64,000 nucleotides of DNA from Acidimicrobiia bacterium (GCA_041586155.1 JBFHAT010000005.1:10520-74519), one strand, 5' to 3'; counted from the stretch's first letter, positions 1,233 through 36,335 are shown. Made by a program: numbers and translations. Notes: generated by a model not told the origin, from the sequence alone.

Positions 1233-2387
1233 ATGCGCGTCCTCCATGTGATCGACGGGTTGGGGGGATCCGGCGGCGCCGAGAACCGCATGTGCGAAGA
1301 GGTCCTCGAGCTCGCCGGCCAGACCGACCCGCCCCAGCAGATGGTCGTTCGACTGTACGAGCGCGACTTTCTACAGCCTCGCTTGGAGGAGGCCGGTGTT
1401 GCCGTCGTGGCGCTCGGGCTGGCCGGAGCGCGAGGAGCTCGCAACTGGCCCCTGGCGGCGTGGCGTCTCGTGCAGATCACTCGGAGGTTTCGCCCAGACG
1501 TGATCCATACGTCACTGTTCTCTGCGAACCTGGCCGGCCAGCTGGCCGGGATCGCCACCCGCACTCCCGTCGTGTCGACGATGACCCTGACCGGCGACAT
1601 GCGCCTGCACCGGATGCTGCAACCGGGGGCGGCGTCATGGCGAGCAGGTCTGCTTCGCTGGATCGCCGCCCGAGTGGCCAAGATGGCTCCCGTCGAATAC
1701 CGGGCCATCACCCACGACGTCAAGGACACGTCGTGCGTGGCGATGCCGTTCCCGCCGGACCGAGTGTTCGTCATCCCTCGAGGTCTCGCTCCTACGAGGG
1801 GAACGGCCCCGAGCGATCGGTCTCGCTTCGGTCTACCCGATGGCGTACCCCTGTTCGTCAACGTCGGGCGGCTCACCAAGCAGAAAGGACAGACGCTGCT
1901 CATCGAGGCATTCAGCCGGATCAGACAGGACATCCCCGATGCGATCTTGGCCATTGCCGGTGAGCGGAGCGACGCCACTCACGACGTCGAACGAGCAGTG
2001 ACGTCACATCAGTTGAACGGCGCCGTCCACCTCCTCGGGTTCCGGTCCGACCTCGACCAGCTGCTGGCATCAGCCGACATCTTCTTGTTCAGCTCTCTGG
2101 CTGAAGGTCTCGGCACGGCCGTCCTCGAAGCGGTCGTCGCCGGCCTACCCGTCGTCACCTTCGACATCCCGCCGGTGACCGAGGTGGTGGACGGTGCGCC
2201 TGGTGTGACCATCGTGCCGATGGAAGACGCCGCTGCGCTGGCTGCCGCCGCAGTGAACGCCTGGCGCACGCTGCAGGCCGGAGAGCGAACCGGCGATGGT
2301 CGAGCGTGGGTCTACGACCGCTACGAGCTCGGAGTCGTCGGGTCCCGGCTCAGACGGGAGCTGGAGCGGGTTGCCGGCTCAGCCTGA
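1233..2387 (+). CDS. Glycosyltransferase family 4 (group 1)
   Basis: MRVLHVIDGLGGSGGAE N-terminus. C-terminal GT4 signature EGLGTAVLEAVVAGLPVV. 384 aa. Confidence 0.8.
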   Translation: MRVLHVIDGLGGSGGAENRMCEEVLELAGQTDPPQQMVVRLYERDFLQPRLEEAGVAVVALGLAGARGARNWPLAAWRLVQITRRFRPDVIHTSLFSANLAGQLAGIATRTPVVSTMTLTGDMRLHRMLQPGAASWRAGLLRWIAARVAKMAPVEYRAITHDVKDTSCVAMPFPPDRVFVIPRGLAPTRGTAPSDRSRFGLPDGVPLFVNVGRLTKQKGQTLLIEAFSRIRQDIPDAILAIAGERSDATHDVERAVTSHQLNGAVHLLGFRSDLDQLLASADIFLFSSLAEGLGTAVLEAVVAGLPVVTFDIPPVTEVVDGAPGVTIVPMEDAAALAAAAVNAWRTLQAGERTGDGRAWVYDRYELGVVGSRLRRELERVAGSA

Positions 2388-3272
2388 CCCGAGCTCGAAC
2401 GACGCCGTCATCCATTCCCAGATCAAGTCTCCAAGCGCTTCCTGGGTCGGTAGCGCCGCCCGGCCGTGGACTTTGCCGTCGAGGACCTCGATCTGCATCG
2501 CTGGACCGGCTCGCTCGACCAGGGCTTCCAAGCGGCCGGGCAACGCCGCCTGGAAATCCTCCCATCCGTCCTCGGTACCGAACACGAACAAGACCGGGAC
2601 GCCTCGCTCGATCACTCCCGTCAACGCATCCAAGAACGGACGACTCACCCAGGGCGGCGTGCCGTCGCCGGGCCGGATTCGAGCCAATGCCGCCCTGGCT
2701 TTCGTTCGCGCCAATATCCGAGCGGCCCCTGCGATGCGCGCCAGCTGCTTGGGTTTCAGGAGCATCGTCGGCTCGAGCGCTCCCACTCCCCGGCTCATGA
2801 ACTCCAGTGTGGATCCCTCCGCCAGCCTGGTGGCGGTACCCTCGCCGCGATCGAAGTCGCGCACCAGAGGGGCGATCAGCACCAGGCCGGCCAGATCTTC
2901 GATGCGGTCCGCCGCCGCCAGCGCGTTCCTGGCGCCGAAACACTGACCGATGAGCACGTGTCGGCTCACACCCCGGCTTCGTAGCGAATCGACGGCCCCC
3001 ACGACGTCAGCGGCGAAATAACGGTTCGATCCCATCTCCCCGATCAAGCCTGTGCTGTCCCCGGCTCCGTGATAGTCGAATCGCAAGGTGCGGACTCCGA
3101 CGGAGGCAAGGCGGGTTTCCAGCGGGGTCCACAGCGGGCTGCGGGTCACGGCCGCCGTGTAACCCCCGCCGCGCAAGACCGTGACTCCAAGTGAACCGGG
3201 TTGGTCGGGCTCGGTGCAAGTTCCAAAAAGCGTCTCACCGGCGGCTTCGAAGAAGAGCGGATGAGTTGTCAT
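2379..3272 (-). CDS. Alpha/beta-fold hydrolase, second of an adjacent pair (resembles the exosortase-system-associated hydrolase 1/2 families)
   Basis: Start taken at MTTHPLFFEAAGETLFG, an internal Met of ORF 2379..3431, which gives a 4-bp ATGA overlap with the upstream gene. Sequence has the a/b hydrolase pattern (HG..GDS.G). Confidence 0.6.
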   Translation of the reverse strand: MTTHPLFFEAAGETLFGTCTEPDQPGSLGVTVLRGGGYTAAVTRSPLWTPLETRLASVGVRTLRFDYHGAGDSTGLIGEMGSNRYFAADVVGAVDSLRSRGVSRHVLIGQCFGARNALAAADRIEDLAGLVLIAPLVRDFDRGEGTATRLAEGSTLEFMSRGVGALEPTMLLKPKQLARIAGAARILARTKARAALARIRPGDGTPPWVSRPFLDALTGVIERGVPVLFVFGTEDGWEDFQAALPGRLEALVERAGPAMQIEVLDGKVHGRAALPTQEALGDLIWEWMTASFELGSG

Positions 3273-4147
3273 CGATCCGCCCCCAGGTTCTCCACCCAGG
3301 CAACCGTCTGGTCGATGAGCAGCCTGGTCAGCATCTTGTTCTCTTCTGTCTCGAACCGGTCGGCTTCGAACCACCACGCTTCCTCGTGACCCGTGGAGGA
3401 CGCCGTGACCTCGACACCTGCATCCTGCCACCCAGCCGCGACAAGGGCCAGATCCTCGGCCAGCTCGGAACGGCGCGACACCTGCAGCACGAGCGCTGCC
3501 TCGGAGGCGGCTTCGCTGATCAGTCGGGGAACGTCGATCGGCGCGACCGACCGATGGAGGTCACGCTCGATGAGGTAGTCGAGAACGACCAGACTGCCTT
3601 CGTTCTCGAGCATCGTGACGAGATCGGATCCCGAATGGCGCTTGTCTGCGCCGGAGGTCAGCTCCTGGACCTGCCGCACCCTGATGATGTCGGCCAGATA
3701 TCCCGCCGGATCGATGACCGGATCCCAGAGCACGAGCGGTGCCCCACCGCGCCGGACGGCTGCCCGGGCTGCCACGATGCCACCCCACCGCACCCCCATC
3801 AGGATCATGCGATCAGGACGACAACGCTCGGCGAGGGCACCGGCGGCAGCGTCGGCGTCGTCGGTCATGGACGCAACGGTCATCCCGCCGGGCACGTCGT
3901 CACTCAGACCCGTATTGCGGTATTGGAATCGCTGCACGGCCGCTCCGGCTGCGGCCAGCGCACGCGCCAAGAGCACTTCACGCCGATAGTTCTTGAAGTA
4001 CTCGGCGTAGATCGGGCTGCAGATCACCACTCCCGTCCCACTGGGCTGATCGGGCAGATACCGATGCCCGAAGAGCCCCGGACCAACTAGATCAGCTTCT
4101 TCGAGGAATCCCTCCGCCTGGCGAACAGCTCCCGCTCCAGGGCTCAT
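3269..4147 (-). CDS. Alpha/beta-fold hydrolase, first of the adjacent pair
   Basis: 292 aa with VVICSPIYAEY...GLSDD motifs of the a/b hydrolase fold. Overlaps both neighbours by 4 bp, so it reads as part of an operon. Confidence 0.6.
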   Translation of the reverse strand: MSPGAGAVRQAEGFLEEADLVGPGLFGHRYLPDQPSGTGVVICSPIYAEYFKNYRREVLLARALAAAGAAVQRFQYRNTGLSDDVPGGMTVASMTDDADAAAGALAERCRPDRMILMGVRWGGIVAARAAVRRGGAPLVLWDPVIDPAGYLADIIRVRQVQELTSGADKRHSGSDLVTMLENEGSLVVLDYLIERDLHRSVAPIDVPRLISEAASEAALVLQVSRRSELAEDLALVAAGWQDAGVEVTASSTGHEEAWWFEADRFETEENKMLTRLLIDQTVAWVENLGADR

Positions 4148-5256
4148 CCGGCCCCCTCGCCCGCCGGCGCAGCTTCACTCGCGTCGACGCCTCGCCCGCT
4201 TCCCTGTCCGGCCCGTCGGCTGCTGGCTTCTTCGCGCATCGCCAGCAACCGACCGCTGGGACCGACTGGTCGGAGCAGTGCGAAATCGACGGCATCGGTC
4301 GCACCGAGGGCGTACTTGTGGGGCTCGGACCCTCTGAGCAGATCCAGGCTGGACAACCCTTCGCTTCGCGCCCAGTCGAGGGCAGTCACGGTGAGGGCGA
4401 TACCGATGCCGTATCGGGCAAATTCGGGATTCCATCCTGTTTTGTAGCTGGCGAACGTTGTGCGGTGCCTGAACCCGAGGAGACCGGCGATCGCTTCGCC
4501 GTCCTTCTCCATCAGCAACAGCCACGGCCCGTCAGGTCCAGTCGCTCGCCGGGCGACGTCCGACAGGAAACGCAGGCGAAGCTCGTCGAACAGCCCGCCA
4601 CCTCGACCATCCCAGCGGCTGGCGTGCAGCTCTTGAAGCGAGCTGAGCCCGTCGGCGACCGCCGGGCCTGGCGAGACCCATCGTGGCTTCACGCCGAGCC
4701 CTTCGAGCTGTCGAGCTCGGCGTCTCACGTTCTCCCGCATCTTCTTCGACCAACGACCCTCGATGTCGTCGCTCAGCTGGAACGCCGGGCACCGAATCCG
4801 GTCCACCACGGTAGCTCCGGCGATCCGCAGCAATGCCGGTTCGTGCTGCTCGGCCACCGACTCGAACAGCAGCGTGCGGCCGGACCCCGTCTCGATGGCC
4901 GCTGCCACCAGCGCATGCTCGACGTCGCCGCCTGTCTCGCAAATGGGTCCGAGATGGTCGCCCGCCCCCGCGCCGGACCCGGCGAGACCCAAATAGCGAA
5001 GTGGCACGGGAACTCGCCTGTGGACTCGGCGTTGCAGCTCGGACAGCGCCAGCAGGCCAAGGAGAGTCCCATCATCGTCGCGAGCGGTGAGCACAGTCAG
5101 GGCTGCGTTGGGCTCGAGCACCTCATGCCAGGAGCGAATCCAGCTCGCCGTTTGGAAGAAGTTCGACACCCCGGCTCGGGCGAACAGACGATCCCATTCA
5201 CCCTCCAACTCGTCGAGCGCTTCATCGCCCGGAACGGCGGACACCTGAACAGTCAT
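4144..5256 (-). CDS. FemAB/CelD-like GNAT-fold acyltransferase (BioF2-like acetyltransferase domain)
   Basis: 370 aa. The family is ~350 aa with the WNPEFARYGIGIALTVTALDWARSEG region. It sits directly beside the hydrolase pair, as in PEP-CTERM accessory cassettes. Confidence 0.55.
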   Translation of the reverse strand: MTVQVSAVPGDEALDELEGEWDRLFARAGVSNFFQTASWIRSWHEVLEPNAALTVLTARDDDGTLLGLLALSELQRRVHRRVPVPLRYLGLAGSGAGAGDHLGPICETGGDVEHALVAAAIETGSGRTLLFESVAEQHEPALLRIAGATVVDRIRCPAFQLSDDIEGRWSKKMRENVRRRARQLEGLGVKPRWVSPGPAVADGLSSLQELHASRWDGRGGGLFDELRLRFLSDVARRATGPDGPWLLLMEKDGEAIAGLLGFRHRTTFASYKTGWNPEFARYGIGIALTVTALDWARSEGLSSLDLLRGSEPHKYALGATDAVDFALLRPVGPSGRLLAMREEASSRRAGQGSGRGVDASEAAPAGEGAG

Positions 5257-7254: not shown

Positions 7255-8253
7255 TCACGAGCGGCCCCGGGCGTGGTGGATCGCCGGGTGGAGCCCACTG
7301 AGGATGATGGCGAGCCGGTCGAGCGATGTCGTCGAGTTCACCCGCAAACGGGAGATGCGGAGCCGCGCCCCCGGCGGCATGGGCTGCAAGTGATGATCGA
7401 ACAGGAAACCGAGGACGTAGCCGAGCTCGTCGAGCACCGACTCGGCCCGGCCGTCCCAGTTGCCGTTGGGATAGGCGAACGCACGCGGGGACCGTCCCAT
7501 CCACGCTGCAAGTTGGCGGTGCGCCGCCTCGATCTCATGCCGGATCTTGTCGGTCGGGCATCGATCGAGACACGGGTGGCTCATCGTGTGGTTCTCGATC
7601 ACCACGCCGCCACGCTCGAGCGCCGCCAGGTCATCGACGCTGAGTTGGGGACTCTGCACGGGTTCGCCGTCGACGGACGCCCGCAGCCATTCGATGGCTT
7701 CCAGCCGCTGGGAATCGGGCACGACTTTGAGCCGCTGGACCAAGGTGCCCGGACCCGGAAGGGGGTCGACGGCCCCGCGAGCCAGCAACGCCTCGACCTC
7801 GACCCACCACAGCGGCCGGCTCGTGCCGATCACCCCGGGAACCACGAAGGCGACGCCGGGTACCCCGCGCGCTTTCATCATCGGCAGGGCGGTGTCTCGC
7901 ACGGAGCGGATGCCATCATCGAACGTGATCAGCAGCGCGTTGGGCGGCAACGAGATTCGGCCGGCGGTGGCATCGATGGCATCTGCCAGTGAAATCGGAT
8001 GGTATGCCGACCGATACAGGTCCAGATGCGCCTCGAACTGGGCGGCGTCGTCGATGCCGTGGTACGCCACCACGGCGAGATCGCGACCGGCTCGCCGGCG
8101 AAAGAATGGCTGCAGGGGCGAACGCCGGAGGGTGGCATCGGCCAGGCGGTTCGGAACGATCAATCTACCTCCCAGCGTGAACCATAACGCGCGCCCCGTG
8201 ACCGGGTCGCTGGTTGAAGCGTGCCGACAATGGAGTAACGTTGCTCCGCACAA
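7255..8253 (-). CDS. Polysaccharide deacetylase (NodB homology domain)
   Basis: ITFDDGIRSV...NHTMSHP motifs. ORF 7255..8385 would overlap the divergent ABC gene, so the start was tentatively moved to the in-frame TTG at 8253. The start is uncertain. Confidence 0.6.
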   Translation of the reverse strand: MCGATLLHCRHASTSDPVTGRALWFTLGGRLIVPNRLADATLRRSPLQPFFRRRAGRDLAVVAYHGIDDAAQFEAHLDLYRSAYHPISLADAIDATAGRISLPPNALLITFDDGIRSVRDTALPMMKARGVPGVAFVVPGVIGTSRPLWWVEVEALLARGAVDPLPGPGTLVQRLKVVPDSQRLEAIEWLRASVDGEPVQSPQLSVDDLAALERGGVVIENHTMSHPCLDRCPTDKIRHEIEAAHRQLAAWMGRSPRAFAYPNGNWDGRAESVLDELGYVLGFLFDHHLQPMPPGARLRISRLRVNSTTSLDRLAIILSGLHPAIHHARGRS

Positions 8254-8275
8254 GACTGTACAAAGGGAGGGATCG

Positions 8276-9340
8276 ATGGCTGCGCGGGGCCGGTCACGTT
8301 GGACGCGGCGCGATGCCGGCGCGTCACCCGAGGACCGTCGGCTTGTGCCCGACGGCGGACCGGTGGTGAGCATCTCCAATGTCACGAAGGTCTACACGCC
8401 GTACCCGCCCTTCATGCGGATCTTGCTGCGGTCGTCGATCAAGTCCAGCATCGTGGCGCTCAACGATGTCTCTGTAGACGTCGAAGCGGGCAGCATCCTC
8501 GCCATCGTCGGACCCAACGGTGCCGGAAAATCGACACTGTTTCGGATATTGACCGGGCTCACCACCCCCACCGAGGGGTCGGCCACCATCTGCGGTTTCG
8601 ATGTGACATCACAGGCGTTCCATGTGCGCAGCCGGGTGGGTTTTGCGCCCGCCGACGAGCGTACGCTGCTGTTGCGCCACACCTGCCGTGAGAACCTGAT
8701 GTTCCACGGCAAGCTGCAGGGAATGGAGCTGCGCGGACTGCTGCGCGAAGTCGACGCGACGCTGGAGCTCGTCGGGCTCGGAAAGGCGAAGAACCGGGCA
8801 GGCATCGCGCTGTCGTCGGGTATGAAGGCCAGGTTGCAGCTCGCCCGAGCCTTGCTCCATCGCCCGGCGGTGCTCATCCTCGACGAGCCGACCGGCGCGA
8901 TCGACCCCCTCGCCGCTTACGAAGTGCTCGAGATCATCAAGCAAGCTGCCCGCGAGCGCAACATCGCCACACTCATCAGCTCCCATCGCCTGGAGGAGAT
9001 CGAAGCGCTCCACGACAACGTCGTGCTCATGGATCAGGGCAAGATCGTGTACAAGGGTGACCTCGACGTCATGCGAGAGACCTGGGACAAGCCGGGATTG
9101 GAGATCGTGTTCGAGGACGCGGCCTCCGCCACCCGGGTCGCCGAGTTGGTGGTGAACATGGGATTGGCGACCATCAGCGAGCACGACGGCGTCGTACTGA
9201 CGCTGTCCTCCGACCTGGGCACCGGAAAGCTGATCCACGCCCTGACCGGCCAGACCGAGCAGATCCGTTCGTTTCGAGAAGTCAAGCTGCCGCTGCGGGA
9301 TCTGCTCGCCAAGATCCTCTTGTCAGGAGATGCGACATGA
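8276..9340 (+). CDS. ABC transporter ATP-binding protein (ABC-2/Wzt-like) with C-terminal extension
   Basis: Walker A GPNGAGKST, signature LSSGMKARLQLA, Walker B ILDEPT. ATG at 8276 is preceded by AAAGGGAGGG. An alternative GTG start is at 8345. The start of ORF 7547..9340 is upstream antisense noise. Confidence 0.8.
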   Translation: MAARGRSRWTRRDAGASPEDRRLVPDGGPVVSISNVTKVYTPYPPFMRILLRSSIKSSIVALNDVSVDVEAGSILAIVGPNGAGKSTLFRILTGLTTPTEGSATICGFDVTSQAFHVRSRVGFAPADERTLLLRHTCRENLMFHGKLQGMELRGLLREVDATLELVGLGKAKNRAGIALSSGMKARLQLARALLHRPAVLILDEPTGAIDPLAAYEVLEIIKQAARERNIATLISSHRLEEIEALHDNVVLMDQGKIVYKGDLDVMRETWDKPGLEIVFEDAASATRVAELVVNMGLATISEHDGVVLTLSSDLGTGKLIHALTGQTEQIRSFREVKLPLRDLLAKILLSGDAT

Positions 9341-10155
9341 ATGGTCATCCCGTCGTGGCCGGCACGCGTCGACTCCGTCAGGTCGGGTCGGCCTTCTTCC
9401 GCCTCGGGCTGCAGCAGACCCTTGCGTACCCGTTGTCATTCGTCCAGAGCCAGCTCAGCTCCATCGTGCCGGCGATCATCTTCTTCTTCGTGGCGAAGCT
9501 GGTCGCCCAGGAGAACTACTACACGTCGGTGATCATCGGACTGGTCGCGGCGGGGGTCCTCGACGCCGGTGTTCGAGGCTTCACGCGGGAGATCGACGTG
9601 GCAATCAACCGAGGGTGGTTGGAGATGTTCCTCGTCGAACCGGTGCGCTGGCGTTTCCTCCCATTTGGGATGGCCCTGTGGCCCATCACCCTCGGCCTGG
9701 CCAGCGTCTCGATGATCGCCCTCACGGCCGCCGCCTTGGGTGCACAGTTCCGGCTCGAGAACCTCCCACTCGCCCTCGTGTTCCTTCTGTTGGCGCTCGC
9801 CGCCGGACTGGTGATCGGAACACTGTCCGCCTCCCTCAAGGTGCTGGCAAAATCCGGCGATCCCGTCCTCTTCGTGTACGGGCTGCTCACCCAGATCTTC
9901 GCCGGCGTGTACTTCGATCTCGACGTGATCCCTGCGCCACTGCGCGTCATCTCGTGGGCGTTGCCCCACACGTACGCCATCGCCGCGCTGCGACGCCTGC
10001 TGCTGCCCGAAGGCAGCCAACTCCCGTCGATCTCGGTGGCGACATCCACCTGGGTACTGGTGGCGTTCTGCGTAGTCGGATATCCGGTGGCACTGTGGGT
10101 CTACGGACGGGCACTGGAATACGGCCGCCGTCTGGGGGTGCTCAGTGGCTATTGA
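9337..10155 (+). CDS. ABC-2 type transporter permease (Wzm-like)
   Basis: 272 aa with six predicted TM segments. ATGA overlap with the ATPase gene. Confidence 0.75.
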   Translation: MNGHPVVAGTRRLRQVGSAFFRLGLQQTLAYPLSFVQSQLSSIVPAIIFFFVAKLVAQENYYTSVIIGLVAAGVLDAGVRGFTREIDVAINRGWLEMFLVEPVRWRFLPFGMALWPITLGLASVSMIALTAAALGAQFRLENLPLALVFLLLALAAGLVIGTLSASLKVLAKSGDPVLFVYGLLTQIFAGVYFDLDVIPAPLRVISWALPHTYAIAALRRLLLPEGSQLPSISVATSTWVLVAFCVVGYPVALWVYGRALEYGRRLGVLSGY

Positions 10156-11131
10156 ACCCGGAGAACCCCAGCCGGTGTTTCCGATATTCACGGGCGCCGG
10201 TCGTTCGGGCACCACCTTGTATCGCTCGATCTTCGACTCGCACCCTGACCTCTTCGTCGCACACGAAGCGCATTTTCTCGGTCCCATGGCGGCACGGGCC
10301 GGGCGATACGAGATGAACGGAGCATTCGACCGACAGCGCTTCGTCGACGACCTCTACGACGACCACAAATTCGTGGTGCTGGGCGTCGACCGCCGAGAGG
10401 TGGCCGAAGCCTTCGACGTCGCCGGTCCTGCCGACTTCGCGACCGCCGCCCGGACGGTGTTCGGCGTGCTGGCGCAGCGGGCGGGCAAGCCGAGATATGG
10501 CGACAAATCTCCCAACTATGCGAGCCGCATCACCGAGATCGCGTCCGTCCTGCCCGAGACGAAGTTCGTTCACATCGTGCGGGACGGCCGCAACGTCGCC
10601 CTTTCGCTGCTCGACCGGGGGATCGGACCTGGCACCCTCATCGACGCCGCGAGCCATTGGTCTTCCGTGGTTCGCAAGGTCGGCAATGCGAGCCGTGAGC
10701 TGGGGCCGGACCGGATCCTCCAATCGAGGTACGAGGATCTCATCGCCGAGCCAGAGTCGGAGGTGAGAAGGATCTGCGACTTCTTGCATCTGCCGTTCGA
10801 TCCCCGCATGCTGGCGTATCGGGAGCGAGTGGACGAGATCCTCGAACCGCTGAAAGCGGTCGAATGGGACTGGGCGCATGAGAACCTCTCCGCTCCACTC
10901 GATCCGACGTTACGTGACTGGCGATCGACGATGGAATCGGACGACGTGGCGGCGTTCGAATCGGTTGCGGCCGAGGAGCTGGAGCGCCACGGGTACACCA
11001 TCGCTTCGGATCCGGCAGACCGGCCGGCTGTGCGAGCCGCTGCCAAGGGTCGATGGCTCGGTAAGCGGGTGGCCTTCCGGATACGGCAACCACTCCGGAA
11101 ACGACGCCACCGCCGCCGTCTCGAGCCGTGA
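10145..11131 (+). CDS. Sulfotransferase
   Basis: IFTGAGRSGTTLYRSIFDSHPDLFVAHE 5'-PSB motif. GTG start overlaps the permease stop. Confidence 0.75.
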   Translation: MAIEPGEPQPVFPIFTGAGRSGTTLYRSIFDSHPDLFVAHEAHFLGPMAARAGRYEMNGAFDRQRFVDDLYDDHKFVVLGVDRREVAEAFDVAGPADFATAARTVFGVLAQRAGKPRYGDKSPNYASRITEIASVLPETKFVHIVRDGRNVALSLLDRGIGPGTLIDAASHWSSVVRKVGNASRELGPDRILQSRYEDLIAEPESEVRRICDFLHLPFDPRMLAYRERVDEILEPLKAVEWDWAHENLSAPLDPTLRDWRSTMESDDVAAFESVAAEELERHGYTIASDPADRPAVRAAAKGRWLGKRVAFRIRQPLRKRRHRRRLEP

Positions 11132-12033
11132 GCTCTCTGGGTCCTCGGCCCAGCTTCTTCATCGTTGGTGCACCAAAATGCGCCACGACGTCGATGTACG
11201 AGTACCTGCGCGCCCACCCCGATGTCTTCATGCCCGACAGACGGGAGATGAACTACTTCGGCTCTGATCTGCCGCTGCCGAATCGGCTGCCAGATCTCGA
11301 AACCTATCTGTCGTTCTTCACCGAAGCGCAACCCGGCCAGGTCGTAGGGGAAAAGTCCGTGAATTACCTGTTCTCGCGGTCGGCTGCGCACGAGCTCTTG
11401 GAGTTCGATCCCGAGGCGAAAGCGATCATCATGCTGCGCAACCCGGCGGACGTCGTGTTCTCGTTGCACCGCCAGTTCTTGTTCTCGGCCAACGAGGACA
11501 TCATCGACTTGGCCTCGGCCCTCGATGCCGAGGATGAACGCATTCGAGGGCTCCGGATCCCGGCAGGCGCCCACAACCCGGCGATGCTGGCGTACACGAG
11601 AGTTGCCTCGTTTGCGCCGCAGGTGCGGCGGTACCTGGATCAATTCGGTCCGGATCGGATCGCCGTGGTGATCTTCGACGACTTCGCTGCAGACCCCGAG
11701 CGTGAATATCGGTCGGTGCTCCGGTTCATCGGCGTCGATCCCGGATACGAACCTGACTTCGAGGTCCACAATCCGGCCAAGCGGGTACCGAATGTGGCGG
11801 TGCGTAAGTTCATGAAGACCCATCGCGGCCTCAGTGCCGTGATCAACCGCATCGTCCCTGAAGACCTGCTCGACCGTGCCCGTTCGAGTTTGGCCCGACT
11901 CCAACCGCAACCCGAGCGCCAGCTCGATCCGGATCTCCGTCGACGGCTCGTCGAGGTGTTCGACGACGACATCAGCCAGCTCGAAGCGCTGATCGACCGC
12001 GACCTGTCGGGCTGGCGGCTCGTACCGGCTTAG
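11128..12033 (+). CDS. Sulfotransferase
   Basis: FFIVGAPKCATTSMYEYLRAHPDVFMP motif. GTGA overlap with the preceding gene. Confidence 0.75.
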   Translation: MSSLGPRPSFFIVGAPKCATTSMYEYLRAHPDVFMPDRREMNYFGSDLPLPNRLPDLETYLSFFTEAQPGQVVGEKSVNYLFSRSAAHELLEFDPEAKAIIMLRNPADVVFSLHRQFLFSANEDIIDLASALDAEDERIRGLRIPAGAHNPAMLAYTRVASFAPQVRRYLDQFGPDRIAVVIFDDFAADPEREYRSVLRFIGVDPGYEPDFEVHNPAKRVPNVAVRKFMKTHRGLSAVINRIVPEDLLDRARSSLARLQPQPERQLDPDLRRRLVEVFDDDISQLEALIDRDLSGWRLVPA

Positions 12034-13046
12034 ACGACCTCGAGCTCGCGCAGGATCCGAAACACCTCCGCGCCGATCGGAGCGGTGCGAGAGATCGGGA
12101 TGTGGGCGAAGTCGACCTGTGCCTGCACGCCTTCGAGCTTCAACAGACGATCGATGTCGACCACATGGAAATCGAGCCGAGCGGAGAGTTCGCTGAGCGC
12201 CAGATTGAACTCGCGCCGGCGCAGCGGATGGGCCGACCCCAGCAGCTGGTAGTTGTGATGCTGACTGCCCGGATCGACCACCAGGCTGTTGTAGATGATG
12301 ACGTGTGCGCCGACTTTCTCACGAATCAGCCTGATCACCTCTTCCAGATTCTTCTGAAAGTCGGCGACATCGATCCGGCCGATGCTCTCGAAGTTCTTCT
12401 TGAACCAGCGGGCGACCTCCGGGTCAGGTAGCACCTTGTCCGTCAGGTTGTTGAGCCAGAAGCCGCCCGGATCGATCAGGTATCCCTCGCTTCGGTGGCG
12501 GTAGACGACGCGCACGAGATCCGAGCCGATGGAGAGGATGACGACCGTCTTGGGAAACCGGCCAAAGCGGGGATGGTCATCGATGACGAAGTCTTTCTCG
12601 GTGAACAGGCGAGGTCCGAAATAGTGCTCTTCGAGCCGGAGCCGGCGCCTCACCTCCGCGGTGTCGGCGGTGGCTGCGTCGCCGAGCGTCTGGAGCATCT
12701 GATCGGTCCGGTGCGCCCCCAACTCGCCACCTGTGCCTTGTTTGAAGATGCCGACCGTGCCCTCGAGTCCGGGACCGATCAGCGGCGCCGCAGTGAATGT
12801 GGACGGCAAGTCGCAGCCGCCACGCAGCAGCACCCCCACCCGCCGCGCATCGGGATCGTTCTTGGAGCGGATCACGGCGAAATTGGGACCGGTGTACTGC
12901 ACGAAGTCGGGGCCGGTCTTCTTCCGGACGCGATCGACCACCGCCTTGCGGTACGTGGCCTTGAAACGCCGCTCGAATGCCGTGTCGGTACCGGCGAGCT
13001 TGCGCCAACCTTTGACGCCTTTACGTAGCAGCTTCTGCATCGTCAC
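12030..13046 (-). CDS. Hypothetical protein, possible SGNH/GDSL-like hydrolase
   Basis: VVILSIGSDLVRV is block-I-like and DFAHIPISR is DxxH block-V-like. Assignment is tentative. Confidence 0.35.
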   Translation of the reverse strand: MTMQKLLRKGVKGWRKLAGTDTAFERRFKATYRKAVVDRVRKKTGPDFVQYTGPNFAVIRSKNDPDARRVGVLLRGGCDLPSTFTAAPLIGPGLEGTVGIFKQGTGGELGAHRTDQMLQTLGDAATADTAEVRRRLRLEEHYFGPRLFTEKDFVIDDHPRFGRFPKTVVILSIGSDLVRVVYRHRSEGYLIDPGGFWLNNLTDKVLPDPEVARWFKKNFESIGRIDVADFQKNLEEVIRLIREKVGAHVIIYNSLVVDPGSQHHNYQLLGSAHPLRRREFNLALSELSARLDFHVVDIDRLLKLEGVQAQVDFAHIPISRTAPIGAEVFRILRELEVV

Positions 13047-13456
13047 AGCTCCTCGGCGGTACGGTCCATCACCTCGGCCACGACCCTCATCTTCGAGGTG
13101 GAGTCAGGACTCCCGCCGTTGTCGCCGAACTCGGGCGCGACGTGAGCCAGCACGTCTCCAACCCGGAACGGGCTGCCCTCACCCAGCTCGATCGAGCGCA
13201 TCGTGCCTGGTTCTGACGCAATGATACGGAACCGCAGCCGCAGCTTGACGGTCCGCGTTTGTTCCGACTTCGCGCGACGCCGCCTGAGCAGACGGGAGGC
13301 GTCTTTGGTTCGATCTACGGCCTCCGATTCGCGCGCCTCGATCTCGCAAAGAACGTCACCGAAGGCGATCGCGCCGCCCTCGGCGACGTGCCATTTCGTG
13401 ACCGAGCCGCCGATCACGCCCATGCCGAGCTCGGGTACTTCGACCGACAGGATCAC
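13043..13456 (-). CDS. Small lipoyl/biotinyl-attachment-like domain protein lacking the modifiable lysine
   Basis: VPELGMGVIGGSVTKWHVAEGGAIAFGDVLCEIEARESEAV resembles the E2 lipoyl domain, but the position of the lipoyl-Lys is Arg. 137 aa. Confidence 0.4.
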   Translation of the reverse strand: MILSVEVPELGMGVIGGSVTKWHVAEGGAIAFGDVLCEIEARESEAVDRTKDASRLLRRRRAKSEQTRTVKLRLRFRIIASEPGTMRSIELGEGSPFRVGDVLAHVAPEFGDNGGSPDSTSKMRVVAEVMDRTAEEL

Positions 13457-14130
13457 TCGGCGCCGTCCCGACTGCCCGACTGGACGAGCAAAGGTCGGCG
13501 TTCGAAGAATCCGTAGTCCTCGAGAATGCGCAGTGCCTCTGCGGCGAGTGCCGCGTTGGCAGCTGCGGAGTACTCGAGAGGACCCGCGACATGGTCGGCG
13601 GCCCCCATTTCCGCCAGGATCCGATCCGCATCGATGATCGAGACGCCCTCTCTGATCGACAGTTGGAGCAACGCCAGGTCGACCTGCTGTGCTCGCCGGG
13701 TGAAGGGGTCGGGCTGGTCGTGGTAGTTCGAGATCGTCACGGTGGGGTCGATAGTCGAAGCATTCAGGAAGACGACGTAGATCTCGTCATCCTTGAACCT
13801 CTTCACGACTCTCTCCATCGCCCCCAGGAAACCGTCGGGATGAGATGCACCGACCAGCACGTCGGGATGCGGGCCTAGGAACACGAGATCGGGCCGGTCG
13901 GCGATGGCGCGACTCCGACCGGACTCCAGCTCAGACAACAGGTCGGGATAGCCGCCCCGCGCCTCGATCGTGAGGTCGACCTGCACGCCGTGCTTGCGCC
14001 GGACGAGGTCGGCGAGCCCTTCTTGGAGGACGCTTCCTCCATCGGCTCGCGACACCAGCGCGTCGACGAGTTCCTTGTTCCCCTTGACGACGACCGACAG
14101 GCGGTCCTGGCCGCCGAGACGAGGTGACAT
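13453..14130 (-). CDS. Hypothetical protein
   Basis: 225-aa ORF in an operon-like overlapping arrangement between the ACP and the lipoyl-like gene. No confident family assignment. Confidence 0.4.
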   Translation of the reverse strand: MSPRLGGQDRLSVVVKGNKELVDALVSRADGGSVLQEGLADLVRRKHGVQVDLTIEARGGYPDLLSELESGRSRAIADRPDLVFLGPHPDVLVGASHPDGFLGAMERVVKRFKDDEIYVVFLNASTIDPTVTISNYHDQPDPFTRRAQQVDLALLQLSIREGVSIIDADRILAEMGAADHVAGPLEYSAAANAALAAEALRILEDYGFFERRPLLVQSGSRDGAE

Positions 14131-14135
14131 CGATC

Positions 14136-14395
14136 CTACGCCGCCGGCGAGCGCCTGCTCTCGATCAGCGTCGTGATCGCAGAGATGTCCTTGAAGTTGT
14201 CGAGCGTGACGTCTTCAGGCTCGATCTCGATGCCGAATTCCTCCTTGATGTGCCCGAGGAGGAGGAAGATGCCAAGCGAGTCGATGATCTCACGTTCGAG
14301 GAGGTCGGTGTCGTCTTCCAGGGCCTGATCAGGCCGGCCTTCCATGAATTCTTGGCGGATGAACGCTTTGACCGCTGCAGCAGTGTTCTCCACGA
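14136..14395 (-). CDS. Acyl carrier protein (phosphopantetheine-binding)
   Basis: LLEREIIDSLGIFLLLGHIKEEFGIEIEPEDV contains the DSL phosphopantetheine attachment motif. Start taken at GTG 14395, ~86 aa. The upstream part of ORF 14136..14621 is probably not translated. Confidence 0.6.
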
Positions 14396-14738
14396 ATAAC
14401 CCCTTTCGCGCGCCATGGTGTCTTGGGCAAGCCCGGCCGAAGCAGGCTTGCGCCTCCCAGCGCCTCGCCTGCCGGAGCGTGATGGTCATCCACTCCCTTG
14501 CCACCATCAATCCACAGCGGTGCGGCTGAACTCTATCGGCGGCCCGCGCGGCTGTCCACCCGCCGGTCACCCCCACCTCGACAGCAAAGGAGCACGTCGG
14601 TAAGGTGCTCAGAACCCACAACTTCCCAGACGCCGCCTGATCCCAGCAGGCCCGCGAAGCCCTTCATCCACTTCGGCGCATTGCCGATAGGGTTCGAAGA
14701 CGACCCGATGCTGGTCGAGGCGCCAGGAGTCTCCCAGA

Positions 14739-15944
14739 ATGAAACACACCATCCTCATCTCGATCACGGCTGCGGTGACCGCCGCCACTCTCTTCGTCGC
14801 GGCGCCGTCGCCGGCAGTTGCATCGAGCAGCCTCAGCCCGATCGGCGTGGTCGGTTGCTCGAACACCCGGAACGCAGTCACCGGATACCACGATGTGTCG
14901 TCGGCCAATGCCTTCTGGAGCGCCGCGTCCATCGCCAGCTACGGCGGCGGCTCCGTCGTGCAATGGGAGAAGGCCAGCGACCCACGCTGGGCGACATTCG
15001 ACGAACAGCTGGCCGCCCGCGGGGCAGCAGCCGTGTGGCTGCAGCTGTGCGTCGCCGACAGCTTCAACGGACCCCTCACCGTCGCAGACAACATCGTCGC
15101 TCTGATCCGCCAGCGCACCAATGTTCCCATCTATGCGTCGGCCATCGACGACACGCCATCGTGCAACCGGTCGAATCCGGCTCTGTCCCAGGACATGGTG
15201 GACCACCTCGTCGCCAACGGATCGGCGGAGCGTGGCCCGGTCATGCAGCCCCTCACGGCCAGCCAAACACTCGACGGTTGTCACGCCAACGACGTGGGCG
15301 ACGATGTGTGGGGTGAGACGTTGGCTCTGTTCTTCACCGGGATCGGCGAGGGGGACGATCCGTCGCCGACCCCCAACCCCAGCCCCAACCCCAGCAGTGG
15401 ATCCGGCCTGTTCATCGACGACGACAACAGCCCCCACGAGACAAACATCGAGTGGATCGCCAAGGCCGGGATCACGCTGGGCTGCAATCCTCCCGCCAAC
15501 GATCGCTACTGCCCCGACGACTCCATCACCCGAGGGCAGATGGCGACGTTCCTCGTGCGCGCCCTCGACCTTCCCCCGGCTCGAGGAGCGGTCGGGTTCA
15601 AAGACGACGACGGCATCCATGAAGGCAACATCGAAGCTGTCGCGGCGGCAGGTATCGCATTCGGATGCAACCCCCCGAGCAACGACCGGTTCTGCCCATA
15701 CGACCCGGTCACCCGGGCGCAGATGGCCTCGTTCCTCGCACGAGCGTTCGATCTCCCTCACGTCTCCAACGGCCCGACCTTCATCGATGACGATGGGTCC
15801 GTGCACGAGGCCAACATCGAAGCGATCGCGGCTGCCGGCATCACGGTGGGATGCAACCCGCCCAAAGGCGACAGGTTCTGCCCTGACGATCCGGTGACCC
15901 GCGCCCAGATGGCCACCTTCCTCGTACGGGCGCTCACTCAATGA
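14739..15944 (+). CDS. Secreted protein: SGNH-like N-terminal domain plus three Cys-containing SLH-like repeats
   Basis: Signal peptide MKHTILISITAAVTAATLFVAAPSPAVA. GCSNTR and DGCHAN motifs. Three ~55-aa repeats of the form FIDDDxxxHExNIExIAxAGIxxGCNPPxxDRxCPxDxxTRxQMAxFLxRA. RBS CCAGGAG. Confidence 0.6.
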   Translation: MKHTILISITAAVTAATLFVAAPSPAVASSSLSPIGVVGCSNTRNAVTGYHDVSSANAFWSAASIASYGGGSVVQWEKASDPRWATFDEQLAARGAAAVWLQLCVADSFNGPLTVADNIVALIRQRTNVPIYASAIDDTPSCNRSNPALSQDMVDHLVANGSAERGPVMQPLTASQTLDGCHANDVGDDVWGETLALFFTGIGEGDDPSPTPNPSPNPSSGSGLFIDDDNSPHETNIEWIAKAGITLGCNPPANDRYCPDDSITRGQMATFLVRALDLPPARGAVGFKDDDGIHEGNIEAVAAAGIAFGCNPPSNDRFCPYDPVTRAQMASFLARAFDLPHVSNGPTFIDDDGSVHEANIEAIAAAGITVGCNPPKGDRFCPDDPVTRAQMATFLVRALTQ

Positions 15945-17182
15945 TCGGGGTGCCGATCGGCTGACGAGCCTCGGGCTCTCCGTGCACTGATCGCCCATAG
16001 GCCGGCGCCCACGACCATTCCCGCAATGACCGCCAAGGCGAGCCAAACCGCCGCCGAGGACGACGATTGTGGAGCCGGCACATCCGGCGGAACGGCCTGT
16101 CCGAGTGTCGTACTGGGTGTTTCGACCCTCGACGTGGTGGTGGTTTCCGCGTCGACGGTCGTCTCGGGGGCCGAGGTGGCAGGAACCGTGCTGGCTGGGG
16201 CGACGTCGGTGGTCACCACCGGCGGCACCGTCTCCGGCGTCACGCCGTCGGCGTAGAACCAAGGCGTCGCCGTCGGGTCCGTCAAGAAATGAGCGAGGAG
16301 CAGTTCGCCGACCTTCTCCTCGCCCGAAAGCACGGGGTGAATGCCCTCCTGGAAGTCGTCGCAACTCCATACCAGCCCGTCGGCGCGAGGCTGCATTCCA
16401 TCGGCCCACATGTAGGGTCCCCACCCGATCCAAGGGGCGAGGCCGGAGGAGGGATCGAGCTCCGGAGCGTCCTCGACCTGGAGTTCGATCGTCCATTTCA
16501 CCGAGAACCCGTTCTCGTAGGCGATCGGTTCCCCTTGATCGGCGTAACCGCCGTAGATGCGGCTCGACAGGTAGACGAGCCGCAAATTGGGAAACCGCTC
16601 CCGCAACACCTGCAACACCTCGACCATCTGGCCGACGTACCGCTCACCCTCGCGTGGGAACCGGCTCGGACCTCGATCCTGGGCCGGCAGCTTGACCCAG
16701 GCCACCTGCACCTGCTCGGCGGTCAGCCCTGCCTCGTCGAGCAGGCTGTCGACTTGAAGCCAGGGCCGGCCCGACGAAGAGGTCCACACCCCCAGAGGCG
16801 CACCGTTCTGGGCGAGGTTGGCAGTTCGCAGCGCCGGATTGACCCGACCATCTCTGGCGACCAGCCGTTCGAAGGCAGCGAACTCCGTTCGCGTGTTCGA
16901 TACGCCAATCGACACGAGACCGATCGAACCATCCGATGCGGGGGAGCCGTCCAGTCCACGCGGCACAACATCGGCGGCAGCCGCCAGCCCCTGTTGCAGG
17001 TGATGATCGGGCGGAAGATTGGACCCGTCGTACAGGCCGCCGGCCTCGCCTCGATACTCGCCACCCACCAACTCGGTCAGCGGCACCAGGCCGGTGCGGT
17101 CGTTCGTACAGTCCTTGGCGGCGCGTTGCGCAGCCGCTGGTGCACCACTCAGCACCAGCAGGACCGCGATGATCATTGCCAC
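15938..17182 (-). CDS. Secreted SGNH-like hydrolase paralog with Thr/Pro-rich linker and C-terminal TM anchor
   Basis: Signal peptide. GVSNTR and DDFQEGIHP motifs. Linker TPETVPPVVTTDVAPASTVPATSAPETT. C-terminal AVWLALAVIAGMVVGAGLWAISARRARG. Confidence 0.55.
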   Translation of the reverse strand: MAMIIAVLLVLSGAPAAAQRAAKDCTNDRTGLVPLTELVGGEYRGEAGGLYDGSNLPPDHHLQQGLAAAADVVPRGLDGSPASDGSIGLVSIGVSNTRTEFAAFERLVARDGRVNPALRTANLAQNGAPLGVWTSSSGRPWLQVDSLLDEAGLTAEQVQVAWVKLPAQDRGPSRFPREGERYVGQMVEVLQVLRERFPNLRLVYLSSRIYGGYADQGEPIAYENGFSVKWTIELQVEDAPELDPSSGLAPWIGWGPYMWADGMQPRADGLVWSCDDFQEGIHPVLSGEEKVGELLLAHFLTDPTATPWFYADGVTPETVPPVVTTDVAPASTVPATSAPETTVDAETTTTSRVETPSTTLGQAVPPDVPAPQSSSSAAVWLALAVIAGMVVGAGLWAISARRARGSSADRHPDH

Positions 17183-20581: not shown

Positions 20582-21652
20582 ATGAGGGGGGACATCGTCG
20601 TGTTGAGGAACACCGAATCGGCCACCGCCGAATCACCGCAGGCTGCGAGCCCGGAACCGTTCGCCTGGCGGAGGATCGCATACCCGATCGCTCTCGCCGT
20701 CGTGTACCTGACTTGGTTGACGTACATGGCGACGAGCGACCGATGGGGTCTCTTCGCAGAGCATTGGCCCGTGTCGCTCACGATGAGCCTCGGGTCGTTC
20801 GTGGCGGGGGCGACCGCCGAGGGTGGAGCTGCGGTGGCGTTCCCGGTCTTCACCAAGGTGCTGCACATCGAGCCGACGACGGCGCGGACGTTTGGCCTCC
20901 TCATCCAATCGGTGGGGATGACCATGGCCGCCCTCGTCATCGTCGTCCGGCGAGTGACCATCCTGCCCCGGGTGATCTTGTGGGTCTCACTTGGAGGGGT
21001 GGCCGGTCAGGTGATCGGCACCTTCTGGGTGGGCCTCGCCAGCCCCTACTCGAAGATCCTGTTCACGTTCGTCGCCACCGTCTTTGGTGTGGCGCTGGCC
21101 GTCTCACGGTGGGCCTTGAAATGGAACCCGCTGCGGTCGATGCCCGGCTGGGGCAAGGCACATCGGACGACCTTCGTGGCCCTGGGGGTCGCAGGCGGCA
21201 TCGTGGCAGCCAACACGGGATCGGGCATCGACATGGTGACGTTCATCGTCCTCACCCTTGCGATTGGAATCGACGAGAAGGTCAGCACTCCGACCACCGT
21301 GGTGATCATGGCAATCAACTCCGTCGTGGGCACCATGCTCCACGCCTTCGTGGTCCGGGACGTCGGCATCGCTTTCGAATATTGGCTCGTCGCAGTCCCG
21401 ATCGTCGTCATCGGCGCTCCCTTCGGCGCCTACTTCGCCTCCAAGGCCACCAGAGACCAGATCATCTGGCTGCTGCTCACGCTGATCACCATCGAGCTCA
21501 TCTCGACGCTGTGGCTCGTTCCGTTCTCACGTACCGCCATCATCGTGACGTCGATCGCCGTCGTCGTCTGCGCCGTCGGGTTCTGGGCGATGCTCCACCA
21601 TCGCCACCGACGACTCAGTCCTCGCCTCGTCCCCCGACCCAGCGAGACCTGA
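20582..21652 (+). CDS. TSUP-family (TauE/SafE-like) membrane permease
   Basis: Two internal repeats each with a glycine-rich motif (FVAGATAEGGAAVAFPVF and VAANTGSGIDMVTF). ~8 TM segments. Confidence 0.55.
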   Translation: MRGDIVVLRNTESATAESPQAASPEPFAWRRIAYPIALAVVYLTWLTYMATSDRWGLFAEHWPVSLTMSLGSFVAGATAEGGAAVAFPVFTKVLHIEPTTARTFGLLIQSVGMTMAALVIVVRRVTILPRVILWVSLGGVAGQVIGTFWVGLASPYSKILFTFVATVFGVALAVSRWALKWNPLRSMPGWGKAHRTTFVALGVAGGIVAANTGSGIDMVTFIVLTLAIGIDEKVSTPTTVVIMAINSVVGTMLHAFVVRDVGIAFEYWLVAVPIVVIGAPFGAYFASKATRDQIIWLLLTLITIELISTLWLVPFSRTAIIVTSIAVVVCAVGFWAMLHHRHRRLSPRLVPRPSET

Positions 21653-31978: not shown

Positions 31979-32017
31979 TTCAGTTCTTCCTCCTGGTTCT
32001 GATTCGTCGAAGGCCAC

Positions 32018-33256: not shown

Positions 33257-33284
33257 TGGTGCATCTCCCGGGGGTGGACTCTTC

Positions 33285-36184: not shown

Positions 36185-36335
36185 GACGCTCCTAGGAGGG
36201 TGGCGTGTGCAGATCGCGGCGAACCGTAGCGGCCCGAGCACTCACCGCAAGCAGATACCATATCGGCGCCAGCCGGCGGAGGACCTCGGAAACGAGGAAA
36301 ATCGATCGCCTGGGTGATGCGGCCGGAGGGTGCGC

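Follow-up and report, generated by a model that had tools for sequence, protein, structure and literature searches.

SGNH-fold proteins act as terminal acyl-transfer enzymes for surface polymers in the AlgI/AlgJ/AlgF/AlgX, OatA/OafA (AT3-SGNH) and Dlt systems. The alginate system employs two SGNH-like proteins (AlgJ and AlgX) together with a small beta-sandwich adaptor, AlgF, and in the Dlt system (DltA/DltC/DltB/DltD) the acyl group is supplied by an adenylation enzyme and a carrier protein. We analyzed 64,000 nucleotides of DNA from an Acidimicrobiia bacterium (GCA_041586155.1, JBFHAT010000005.1:10520-74519; this whole stretch is called the window), in which four minus-strand genes encode, in the order of transcription, an acyl or peptidyl carrier protein (ACP), an SGNH-like protein (P225), a lipoyl-fold protein (LIPL) and a second SGNH-like protein (SG338). 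With moderate confidence, we interpret them as a cytoplasmic, carrier-protein-linked acyl-transfer module for tailoring a sulfated glycan of the cell envelope before an ABC transporter exports it, with LIPL as an unmodified adaptor. P225, LIPL and SG338 are referred to as the triad.

A second point of comparison is the biosynthesis of the aminocoumarins clorobiocin and coumermycin. For clorobiocin, CloN1 and CloN7 move a carrier-bound pyrrolyl-2-carboxyl group onto the hydroxyl group of a sugar, and CloN7 is termed an acyltransferase (PMC11218499, PMC8748450). Loci related to ours share with these pathways (CloN4/N5/N3; CloN2, CloN1, CloN7) a proline adenylation enzyme, a carrier, a dehydrogenase and often a second carrier, and the acceptor is a sugar in both, presumably so on the side of the triad. 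However, SG338, the putative transferase, combines an SGNH fold with a cysteine and two accessory proteins and does not have the alpha/beta-hydrolase fold of CloN7. The proposed acceptor is a sulfated polymer exported by Wzm/Wzt and not an aminocoumarin glycoside, and the window is without a proline cassette.

The module also differs from the Alg, Oat and Dlt systems. No signal peptide or membrane anchor is visible on inspection of the N-termini of P225, LIPL and SG338, so the chemistry would be cytoplasmic; the candidate nucleophile is Cys and not Ser; and the adaptor is a lipoyl-fold protein. The window encodes neither an AT3 nor an MBOAT protein, and the operon is not one of the extracytoplasmic AT3/MBOAT-SGNH systems. 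Our module belongs to none of the CloN, Dlt and alginate families. Literature searches on lipoyl/SGNH/ACP combinations, on Acidimicrobiia sulfated polysaccharide and on pyrrole-sulfotransferase-halogenase clusters turned up no description of it, and it is an undescribed, conserved combination of known folds.

The operon and its lipoyl-fold protein

The four-gene carrier-protein operon that an earlier note had read from the sequence of the window is real. All four open reading frames (ORFs) are present on the minus strand at 12030-14393 (Table 1), with a coding-type composition (G+C of 0.78-0.81 at third and 0.34-0.49 at second codon positions). The window has ~65% G+C. ACP and P225 are separated by a 5-nt gap, and the P225/LIPL and LIPL/SG338 junctions are 4-bp GTGA overlaps, which argues for translational coupling of all four genes. 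Only the ACP boundary, given earlier as 14395, was two bases off.

LIPL has the barrel-sandwich hybrid fold of PF00364. Its residues 5-41 match Pfam Biotin_lipoyl (PF00364) with 32.5 bits (cut-off 22.1, E 7.8e-8), and a profile of 51 family members aligned both halves of the protein to E2 lipoyl domains in the PDB (residues 1-44 to E2 1-44, ~1e-13; residues 81-124 to E2 48-92). The AlphaFold2 model, computed from a 19-sequence alignment, is a lipoyl-type beta-sandwich (predicted local distance difference test, pLDDT, 78), and Foldseek matched it to lipoyl domains with template modelling (TM) scores of 0.7-0.79. The lipoyl-like similarity proposed earlier thus survives profile and fold searches. 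What had been taken for a partial second half-repeat is simply where a single lipoyl domain continues into its normal C-terminal half (residues ~73-108), displaced by a basic insertion of ~30 aa.

The modifiable lysine is absent. Aligned with the E2 'TDK' motif, Lys falls on Glu43 and Asp on Arg42 of LIPL; the earlier statement that the lysine is lost therefore stands, but not that Arg replaces it, as Arg42 lies one position before the column. Among 96 distinct homologues, the column holds E (48), Q (16), D (12), T (5), G (4) or N (4), with Lys not among the common residues, and LIPL has no modifiable hairpin lysine of the E2 'TDK' or BCCP 'AMKM' type. With this Lys missing throughout the family, redox chemistry by a swinging arm is unlikely, in agreement with the earlier note. 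The LIPL gene always lies in a glycan locus, flanked by two SGNH-like genes, and LIPL is not part of an E2, BCCP or H-protein system.

LIPL could still be a covalent swinging-arm carrier if it were loaded off-site, for example on Lys51 in the RTK(D/R)AS motif of the loop. This motif is conserved in the closest relatives and in a LIPL paralogue that follows a sulfotransferase gene (see below), and the loop is flexible and stands in the place of the lysine hairpin. Nevertheless, we consider such loading very improbable. The insert has no lysine column that is conserved across the family, many members are without Lys at the equivalent loop position, and no lipoate or biotin ligase was noticed in the annotated loci, where no dedicated search for one was made. 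Lys51 was rejected as a shifted modifiable lysine because it is not conserved family-wide. A reading of LIPL as a LysW-type C-terminal carrier was likewise rejected, since the C-termini of the family are acidic but not conserved.

Apart from the lysine, LIPL keeps some E2 features and departs from others. The E2-type 'xWxxxEGD' motif is retained with its invariant Trp (W22, 96/96 homologues), whereas the hairpin is replaced by a polybasic disordered loop of ~32 aa, and an extra C-terminal strand comes with a conserved Arg (R124, 89/96). Across the family, the insert has a median length of 32 aa and a median charge of +7 (at least +3 in 93%), with a median of -8.5 for the remaining protein. In the model, residues 47-66 have pLDDT values below 50, and the C-terminal strand, whose 'RVVA' stretch goes with Arg124, lies within a block of pLDDT 91. 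Only W22, G33, R124, P8, G27, G94 and G100 are invariant or nearly so family-wide. Unlike E2 lipoyl domains, LIPL proteins stand alone (130-160 aa) or are fused to an SGNH-like domain, and they occur in glycan loci and not in dehydrogenase operons. In our reading, LIPL is an E2-type lipoyl domain that lost its Lys and gained a polybasic loop of ~30 aa and an extra C-terminal strand. The polybasic arm would hold an anionic partner, which could be the acidic carrier protein, a sulfated polymer or the membrane.

In HlyD/RND membrane-fusion proteins, a lipoyl-type domain is likewise split by an insertion at the hairpin. LIPL gave weak matches to Biotin_lipoyl_2, HlyD_3, type_I_hlyD and RND_mfp, all far below threshold. 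Unlike these proteins, it has no signal or transmembrane segment, coiled-coil hairpin, beta-barrel or membrane-proximal domain, and in sequence it is closest to E2 lipoyl domains. A membrane-fusion-protein reading of the split domain was rejected on the basis of the sub-threshold matches, the lack of a signal peptide and the lack of other domains of this type.

Variants of LIPL were found in the related loci. Two family members (P0125 and P0127) have a CxxC...CxxC pattern, probably a zinc ribbon, in the insert instead of a purely basic loop. A second stand-alone paralogue with the same architecture occurs directly downstream of a sulfotransferase gene in 13 copies (L002 10034-10486; L003 10055-10504; L010, L014-L019, L023, L027, L030 and L041 at ~12.0 kb), but not in the window. 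Its basic insert (ALQRTKRASLLGSTSKLRKRKV...REGRG) is highly conserved, and its C-terminus is acidic (DPFD). If a sulfated chain were the partner of the polybasic arm, the pairing of this paralogue with sulfotransferases would also be explained. In public records, several lysine-less members (P0277-P0279, P0283, P0164) bear the name 'pyruvate/2-oxoglutarate dehydrogenase complex dihydrolipoamide acyltransferase (E2) component', a mis-annotation that has been propagated.

SG338, P225 and the carrier protein

SG338 has an SGNH (flavodoxin-like) fold. Its AlphaFold2 model (49 sequences, pLDDT 82.9, predicted TM score 0.82) matched SGNH hydrolases and acyltransferases in the PDB, with 4h08, 4q9a, 3mil, 7ddy, OatA-C (5ufy) and TesA (1ivn) as top Foldseek matches (probability 0.97-1.0, target-normalised TM 0.5-0.62). 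Pfam Lipase_GDSL_2 scored below its cut-off of 32.9 for both proteins flanking LIPL (19.7 bits for SG338, 15.8 bits for P225), and a sequence search of the PDB with the SG338 family found no useful relative. Alignment of the family with TesA by hhalign was uninformative (0.7% probability).

The single cysteine of SG338, Cys78, is the candidate nucleophile. Cys78 and Asp79 directly follow strand beta1 (G76-G77-C78-D79), and both are invariant in 81/81 distinct homologues. SG338 has no block I Gly-Asp-Ser motif with a serine nucleophile, and no Ser is found at the nucleophile position. The block V DxxH motif is present in the sequence, with D312 kept in 80 and H315 in 72 of the 81 homologues. 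Asn253 is 94% conserved, and Arg276, Arg277 and Arg278 are nearly invariant. The protein is basic (pI 9.7, net charge +10). SG338 may use Cys/His/Asp acyl-enzyme chemistry on an SGNH scaffold.

P225 is most likely a pseudoenzyme or scaffold. By hhalign (probability 99.4%, E 4e-21, 113 columns), it is a homologue of the C-terminal half of SG338. Its family shows no conserved Cys, His or Ser-nucleophile motif and is missing the block I and block V residues, which makes P225 a probable pseudoenzyme. P225 is acidic, with a net charge of -11. The earlier note had placed two putative hydrolases with weak SGNH-like blocks in the operon. SG338 does have the SGNH fold and P225 is its paralogue, but only SG338 keeps candidate catalytic residues, with Cys as the likely nucleophile.

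The first gene of the operon encodes a genuine member of the PP-binding family (PF00550; 29.2 bits, cut-off 20.8). Its GTG start codon lies seven bases behind an AAGGGG ribosome-binding site, and the D and S of its DSL motif are invariant in 44/44 homologues. The protein has a net charge of -12. It is 44-56% identical to carriers adjacent to P225 in other loci and also, in loci without a P225-adjacent carrier, to the single carriers adjacent to the proline adenylation enzyme; this suggests that the two groups are one orthologous family. The best match of ACP, to the ornithine-lipid model 'ACP_for_OlsHI' (42 bits, cut-off 130), was rejected as generic carrier similarity, and OlsH, a GH3-like planctomycete enzyme, has no counterpart in the window. 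An AMP-binding gene at 34307-36241 (-) was rejected as ACP-loading enzyme, since it belongs to a Liv-type ABC cluster for branched-chain amino acids that housekeeping genes separate from the operon.

The fold of SG338 would also suit a TesA-like thioesterase that releases acyl or pyrrolyl groups from the carrier or proofreads them. Transfer to the glycan would then fall to hydrolases of the hydr1/hydr2 type or to a FemAB-like GNAT protein. The Foldseek matches include E. coli TesA as well as further esterases. Two alpha/beta hydrolases related to hydrolases 1 and 2 and an Acetyltransf_6 GNAT are encoded at 2379-5256 of the window, and CloN7 is an alpha/beta-fold enzyme, even though the papers cited for it speak only of an acyltransferase. 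This is a substantial rival, which we nevertheless regard as rather improbable. A hydrolase has no obvious need of two obligatory non-catalytic partners; alpha/beta hydrolases occur in only ~10 loci, whereas the triad is universal; and a Cys nucleophile would favour a stable acyl-enzyme suited to transfer.

Related loci and the proposed acyl transfer

The genes of the module are conserved and co-occur in relatives, a point that the earlier note had marked for checking. The SG338 family comprises more than 228 proteins at 90% clustering, nearly all from Acidimicrobiia metagenome-assembled genomes (MAGs) and annotated as hypothetical or as 'SGNH/GDSL hydrolase'. An exhaustive profile search yielded ~100 full-length representatives of LIPL (130-160 aa) at 50% identity. 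For a genomic survey, we used one genome per species and ran profiles on six-frame ORFs. This gave 77 loci, all from MAGs, mostly of Acidimicrobiia, with some from Chloroflexota/Anaerolineae and one from Longimicrobiales; the 36 loci with full 10-kb flanks are called fully flanked. Single-linkage clustering of the ORFs from all loci put genes that lie side by side into one cluster and served only for spotting recurrent neighbours. LIPL was found in 76/77 loci, immediately upstream (<150 bp) of 70 of the 84 full-length SG338 genes and farther upstream of 7 more, and the order P225-LIPL-SG338 is near-universal.

The constant unit is the triad, and ACP is frequent but facultative, because the triad is present in 36/36 fully flanked loci and ACP in 21/36. 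ACP lies directly upstream of P225 in 20 loci. At least one gene for ACP, the proline adenylation enzyme or an acyl-CoA-dehydrogenase-type protein, the putative dehydrogenase of the prolyl-loaded peptidyl carrier protein (PCP), is found in 27/36 fully flanked loci, and all three in 12, which bears out the carrier-linked tailoring setting suggested earlier. The module always lies in glycan loci, with sulfotransferases (27/36), GT4 glycosyltransferases and Wzm/Wzt. In at least five lineages a P225-type domain is fused N-terminally to the lipoyl-like domain (P0144, P0175, P0212, P0255, and L049 at 8664-9908). These natural fusions point to P225 and LIPL as a non-catalytic scaffold, as do the fixed order of the genes and their translational coupling. 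The earlier reading of LIPL as an adaptor in a carrier-protein tailoring module is therefore partly supported: the fusions fit a structural or adaptor role, but the constant partners are the two SGNH-like proteins and not ACP.

The same survey bears on a role of the triad in sulfation. The LIPL loop might bind the sulfated chain, or 3'-phosphoadenosine 5'-phosphosulfate (PAPS) or its desulfated product (PAP), and present it to glycan-modifying enzymes. SG338 would remove or rearrange a substituent, for example by a de-O-acylation that frees a sulfation site, with ACP as an accessory that only some lineages have. Genes for sulfotransferases match those of the carrier system in frequency (27/36 loci each), and in 6/36 loci they occur without any carrier-system gene. 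The sulfotransferase-following LIPL paralogue, with the same basic insert, and the very basic nature of SG338, with its nearly invariant RRR triplet (276-278), would be natural for such a function. On the other hand, ACP is translationally coupled upstream of P225 in the window and lies directly upstream of P225 in 19 other loci, and another 6/36 loci contain carrier-system genes but lack a sulfotransferase. In one Chloroflexota locus (L049), the triad is part of an operon with the proline cassette, and the 21 kb fetched for this locus showed no sulfotransferase. We judge a function in sulfation to be unlikely, although it is a substantial rival to acyl transfer.

Pyrrole-2-carboxylate is suggested as the acyl group by a cassette in the related loci. 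About half of the fully flanked loci have, near the triad, a stand-alone L-proline adenylation enzyme and a PigA/RedW-like prolyl-PCP dehydrogenase, often with a halogenase. The AMP-binding gene encodes an amino-acid adenylation domain (TIGR01733, 383-402 bits, cut-off 317). When its specificity code was read out with the motifs FDxS, xxAGE, NxYGPTE and GKxDR as anchors, it was DLFYLALVCK in 10/15 and DLFYVAWVCK in 3/15 sequences, and the code pattern of stand-alone L-proline adenylation enzymes is L(L/F)YLALVC (PMC3874040). The acyl-CoA-dehydrogenase-type protein, in one Chloroflexota and one Acidimicrobiia locus, scored 456-462 bits with the NCBIfam model for PigA (cut-off 500) and 416-442 bits with that for RedW, an L-prolyl-PCP dehydrogenase (cut-off 650), below these equivalog cut-offs but far above other acyl-CoA dehydrogenase models. 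Homologues of FADH2-dependent halogenases are present in 17 of 82 sequences (81 fetched loci and the window), including the closest relatives of the window (L001, L004 and L005).

By sequence similarity, the cassette is the known route that starts from L-proline, passes through prolyl-S-PCP and ends at pyrrolyl-2-carboxyl-S-PCP, halogenated or not, as in PltF/L/E, RedM/O/W, PigI/G/A and CloN4/5/3. In the operon of L049 (1489-13077), genes for a halogenase, a carrier protein, the dehydrogenase, the adenylation enzyme, a second halogenase, a second carrier and an Acyl_transf_3 protein lie on one strand with the P225-LIPL fusion, SG338, Wzm, and then Wzt with a Wzt_C domain. By orthology with such loci, the acyl group of the module is most likely pyrrole-2-carboxylate.

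In the mechanism that we infer, the glycan would be assembled and modified on the cytoplasmic side before export by the ABC transporter. Neither the GT4 enzymes and PAPS-dependent sulfotransferases nor the carrier and the triad proteins have obvious export signals. Pyrrole-2-carboxylate would be made from L-proline on the carrier, and sometimes halogenated. Basic SG338 (+10) would bind the acidic acyl-S-ACP (-12), take over the acyl group from the phosphopantetheine thioester onto Cys78, and pass it to a hydroxyl or amine of the sugar, with His315/Asp312 acting as base. SG338 would be served by P225 and LIPL as a non-catalytic scaffold/adaptor pair. The most specific form of this proposal is tentative, and we hold it to be less likely than not. 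It states that uncultured Acidimicrobiia and Chloroflexota may put a proline-derived, sometimes halogenated pyrrole-2-carboxyl group on a sulfated, ABC-exported glycan by means of a new three-protein transferase, made up of a Cys-SGNH enzyme, its dead paralogue and a lipoyl domain that has no lysine and was exapted, the polybasic arm of which would recruit the carrier or the polyanionic acceptor.

Several observations weigh against carrier-linked acyl transfer by the triad. ACP is missing from 15/36 fully flanked loci, and 9/36 have no carrier-system gene at all. The sulfotransferase-linked LIPL paralogue is not explained by a role in ACP docking. In SG338, the nucleophile assignment of Cys78 rests on the order of secondary-structure elements, His315 is replaced by Lys in 8/81 homologues, and Ser175, at the position of the block III Asn, is variable. 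The exosortase-associated hydr1/hydr2-type alpha/beta hydrolases of the window could be the real acyltransferases, given the fold of CloN7. Finally, nowhere in its 64 kb does the window encode an adenylation enzyme for proline, a prolyl-PCP dehydrogenase or a halogenase of the cassette type, and the pyrrolyl assignment for the Acidimicrobiia source genome therefore comes from its orthologues only.

If carrier-linked acyl transfer is correct, the lipoyl fold would have a new role other than that of a carrier, as a lysine-less adaptor locked into a conserved pair of enzyme and pseudoenzyme. SG338 suggests that the SGNH catalytic scaffold has a variant based on cysteine. Proline-to-pyrrole (and halogenase) chemistry of the natural-product type would be linked with the tailoring of envelope polysaccharides in Actinomycetota and Chloroflexota that are uncultured but abundant in soil and sediment. 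Current annotations describe more than 200 family members only as 'hypothetical', as 'SGNH/GDSL hydrolase' or, wrongly, as 'E2 dihydrolipoamide acyltransferase component'.

Two further features were seen in subsets of the loci. Two carrier-protein genes, sometimes divergent, lie near the triad in L051, L059, L061, L062 and L068 (~8.2-8.9 kb), and in L030, L048, L049 and L056, an arrangement reminiscent of the CloN5 to CloN1 relay. An Acyl_transf_3 (AT3) membrane acyltransferase gene stands beside the triad in four loci, all of Chloroflexota (L049 at 7531-8616, L048, L056 and L057), and no MBOAT or AT3 gene was found in the Acidimicrobiia loci. In L049, the AT3 gene is placed between the second carrier gene and the P225-LIPL fusion, which recalls the AT3-SGNH O-acyltransferases OatA and OafA.

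Genomic setting of the operon

The operon shares its 3' border with sulfotransferase genes. The stop codon of SG338 overlaps that of the convergent sulfotransferase gene, and upstream of ACP 345 bp separate the operon from a divergent gene for an SLH-domain protein. An Rfam scan of 11500-15200 found no family, and a promoter and terminator scan gave chance-level matches only.

Table 1. Positions of the operon genes, of their functional segments and of the convergent genes, counted from the first nucleotide of the window
Feature	Coordinates	Strand	Basis
ACP/PCP carrier protein, 85 aa	14136..14393	-	GTG start; PP-binding match
DSL motif (residues 38-40) of ACP, phosphopantetheine Ser39	14277-14279 (Ser39)	-	codon check
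P225, 225-aa degenerate SGNH-like paralogue	13453..14130	-	hhalign against SG338 family
LIPL, 137-aa lipoyl-fold protein without modifiable Lys	13043..13456	-	Pfam Biotin_lipoyl, PDB profile, AlphaFold2/Foldseek
Arg42-Glu43 of LIPL; Glu43 in lipoyl-lysine column	13328..13333	-	E2 alignment
Basic insertion of LIPL, residues 44-72, net charge +5.5, predicted disordered	13241..13327	-	replaces lysine hairpin
C-terminal tail of LIPL with conserved Arg124 and extra beta-strand 125-134 (MRVVAEVMDR)	13046..13132	-	AlphaFold2
SG338, 338-aa SGNH-fold protein	12030..13046	-	AlphaFold2 and Foldseek
Cys78-Asp79 of SG338, SGNH block I position, candidate nucleophile	12810..12815	-	codons verified
Asp312-Phe-Ala-His315 of SG338, block V DxxH position	12102..12113	-	codons verified
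Two sulfotransferase genes, convergent with operon	10145..12033	+	Pfam Sulfotransfer_3 and Sulfotransfer_1

A glycan locus extends from position 1 to ~21.7 kb of the window. It encodes two SLH-domain proteins, two GT4 glycosyltransferases, three sulfotransferases and a polysaccharide deacetylase, and further an ABC-2 transporter, a DegT protein, a TauE protein, two alpha/beta hydrolases and a FemAB-like GNAT. A 694-aa protein without a family match is possibly a chain-length regulator, by analogy with Wzz-annotated genes in the related loci L001 and L002.

The hydrolases resemble proteins of another kind of polysaccharide locus. At 2379-5256 (-), the two alpha/beta hydrolase genes are followed by the gene for the GNAT (Acetyltransf_6). 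The best NCBIfam matches of the hydrolases, both sub-threshold, are exosortase A system-associated hydrolase 1 and hydrolase 2 (TIGR03100/03101). The set recalls the unexplained ligase-ACP-hydrolase set of PEP-CTERM/exosortase loci for extracellular polysaccharide. The proline adenylation enzymes of the related loci also match TIGR03098 (ligase_PEP_1), with 314-343 bits.

The two SLH-domain proteins, which flank the locus, are secreted and have triple SLH repeats, and a 414-aa protein adjoins them (12-1205 (+), 14739-15944 (+) and 15938-17182 (-)). Besides a Thr/Pro-rich linker, the 414-aa protein has a hydrophobic anchor at its C-terminus; it matched no family. These neighbours suggest that the glycan could be a secondary cell-wall polymer to which SLH domains bind. 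At the edge of this sulfation-rich locus, beside the DegT gene, a membrane protein of the TauE/SafE family (sulfite/sulfonate exporter type) is encoded at 20582-21652 (+). Farther along the window, the AT skew reaches 0.255 in the 2-kb bin 32001-34000, which coincides with the two Liv-type permease genes (-), compared with absolute values of at most 0.1 elsewhere.

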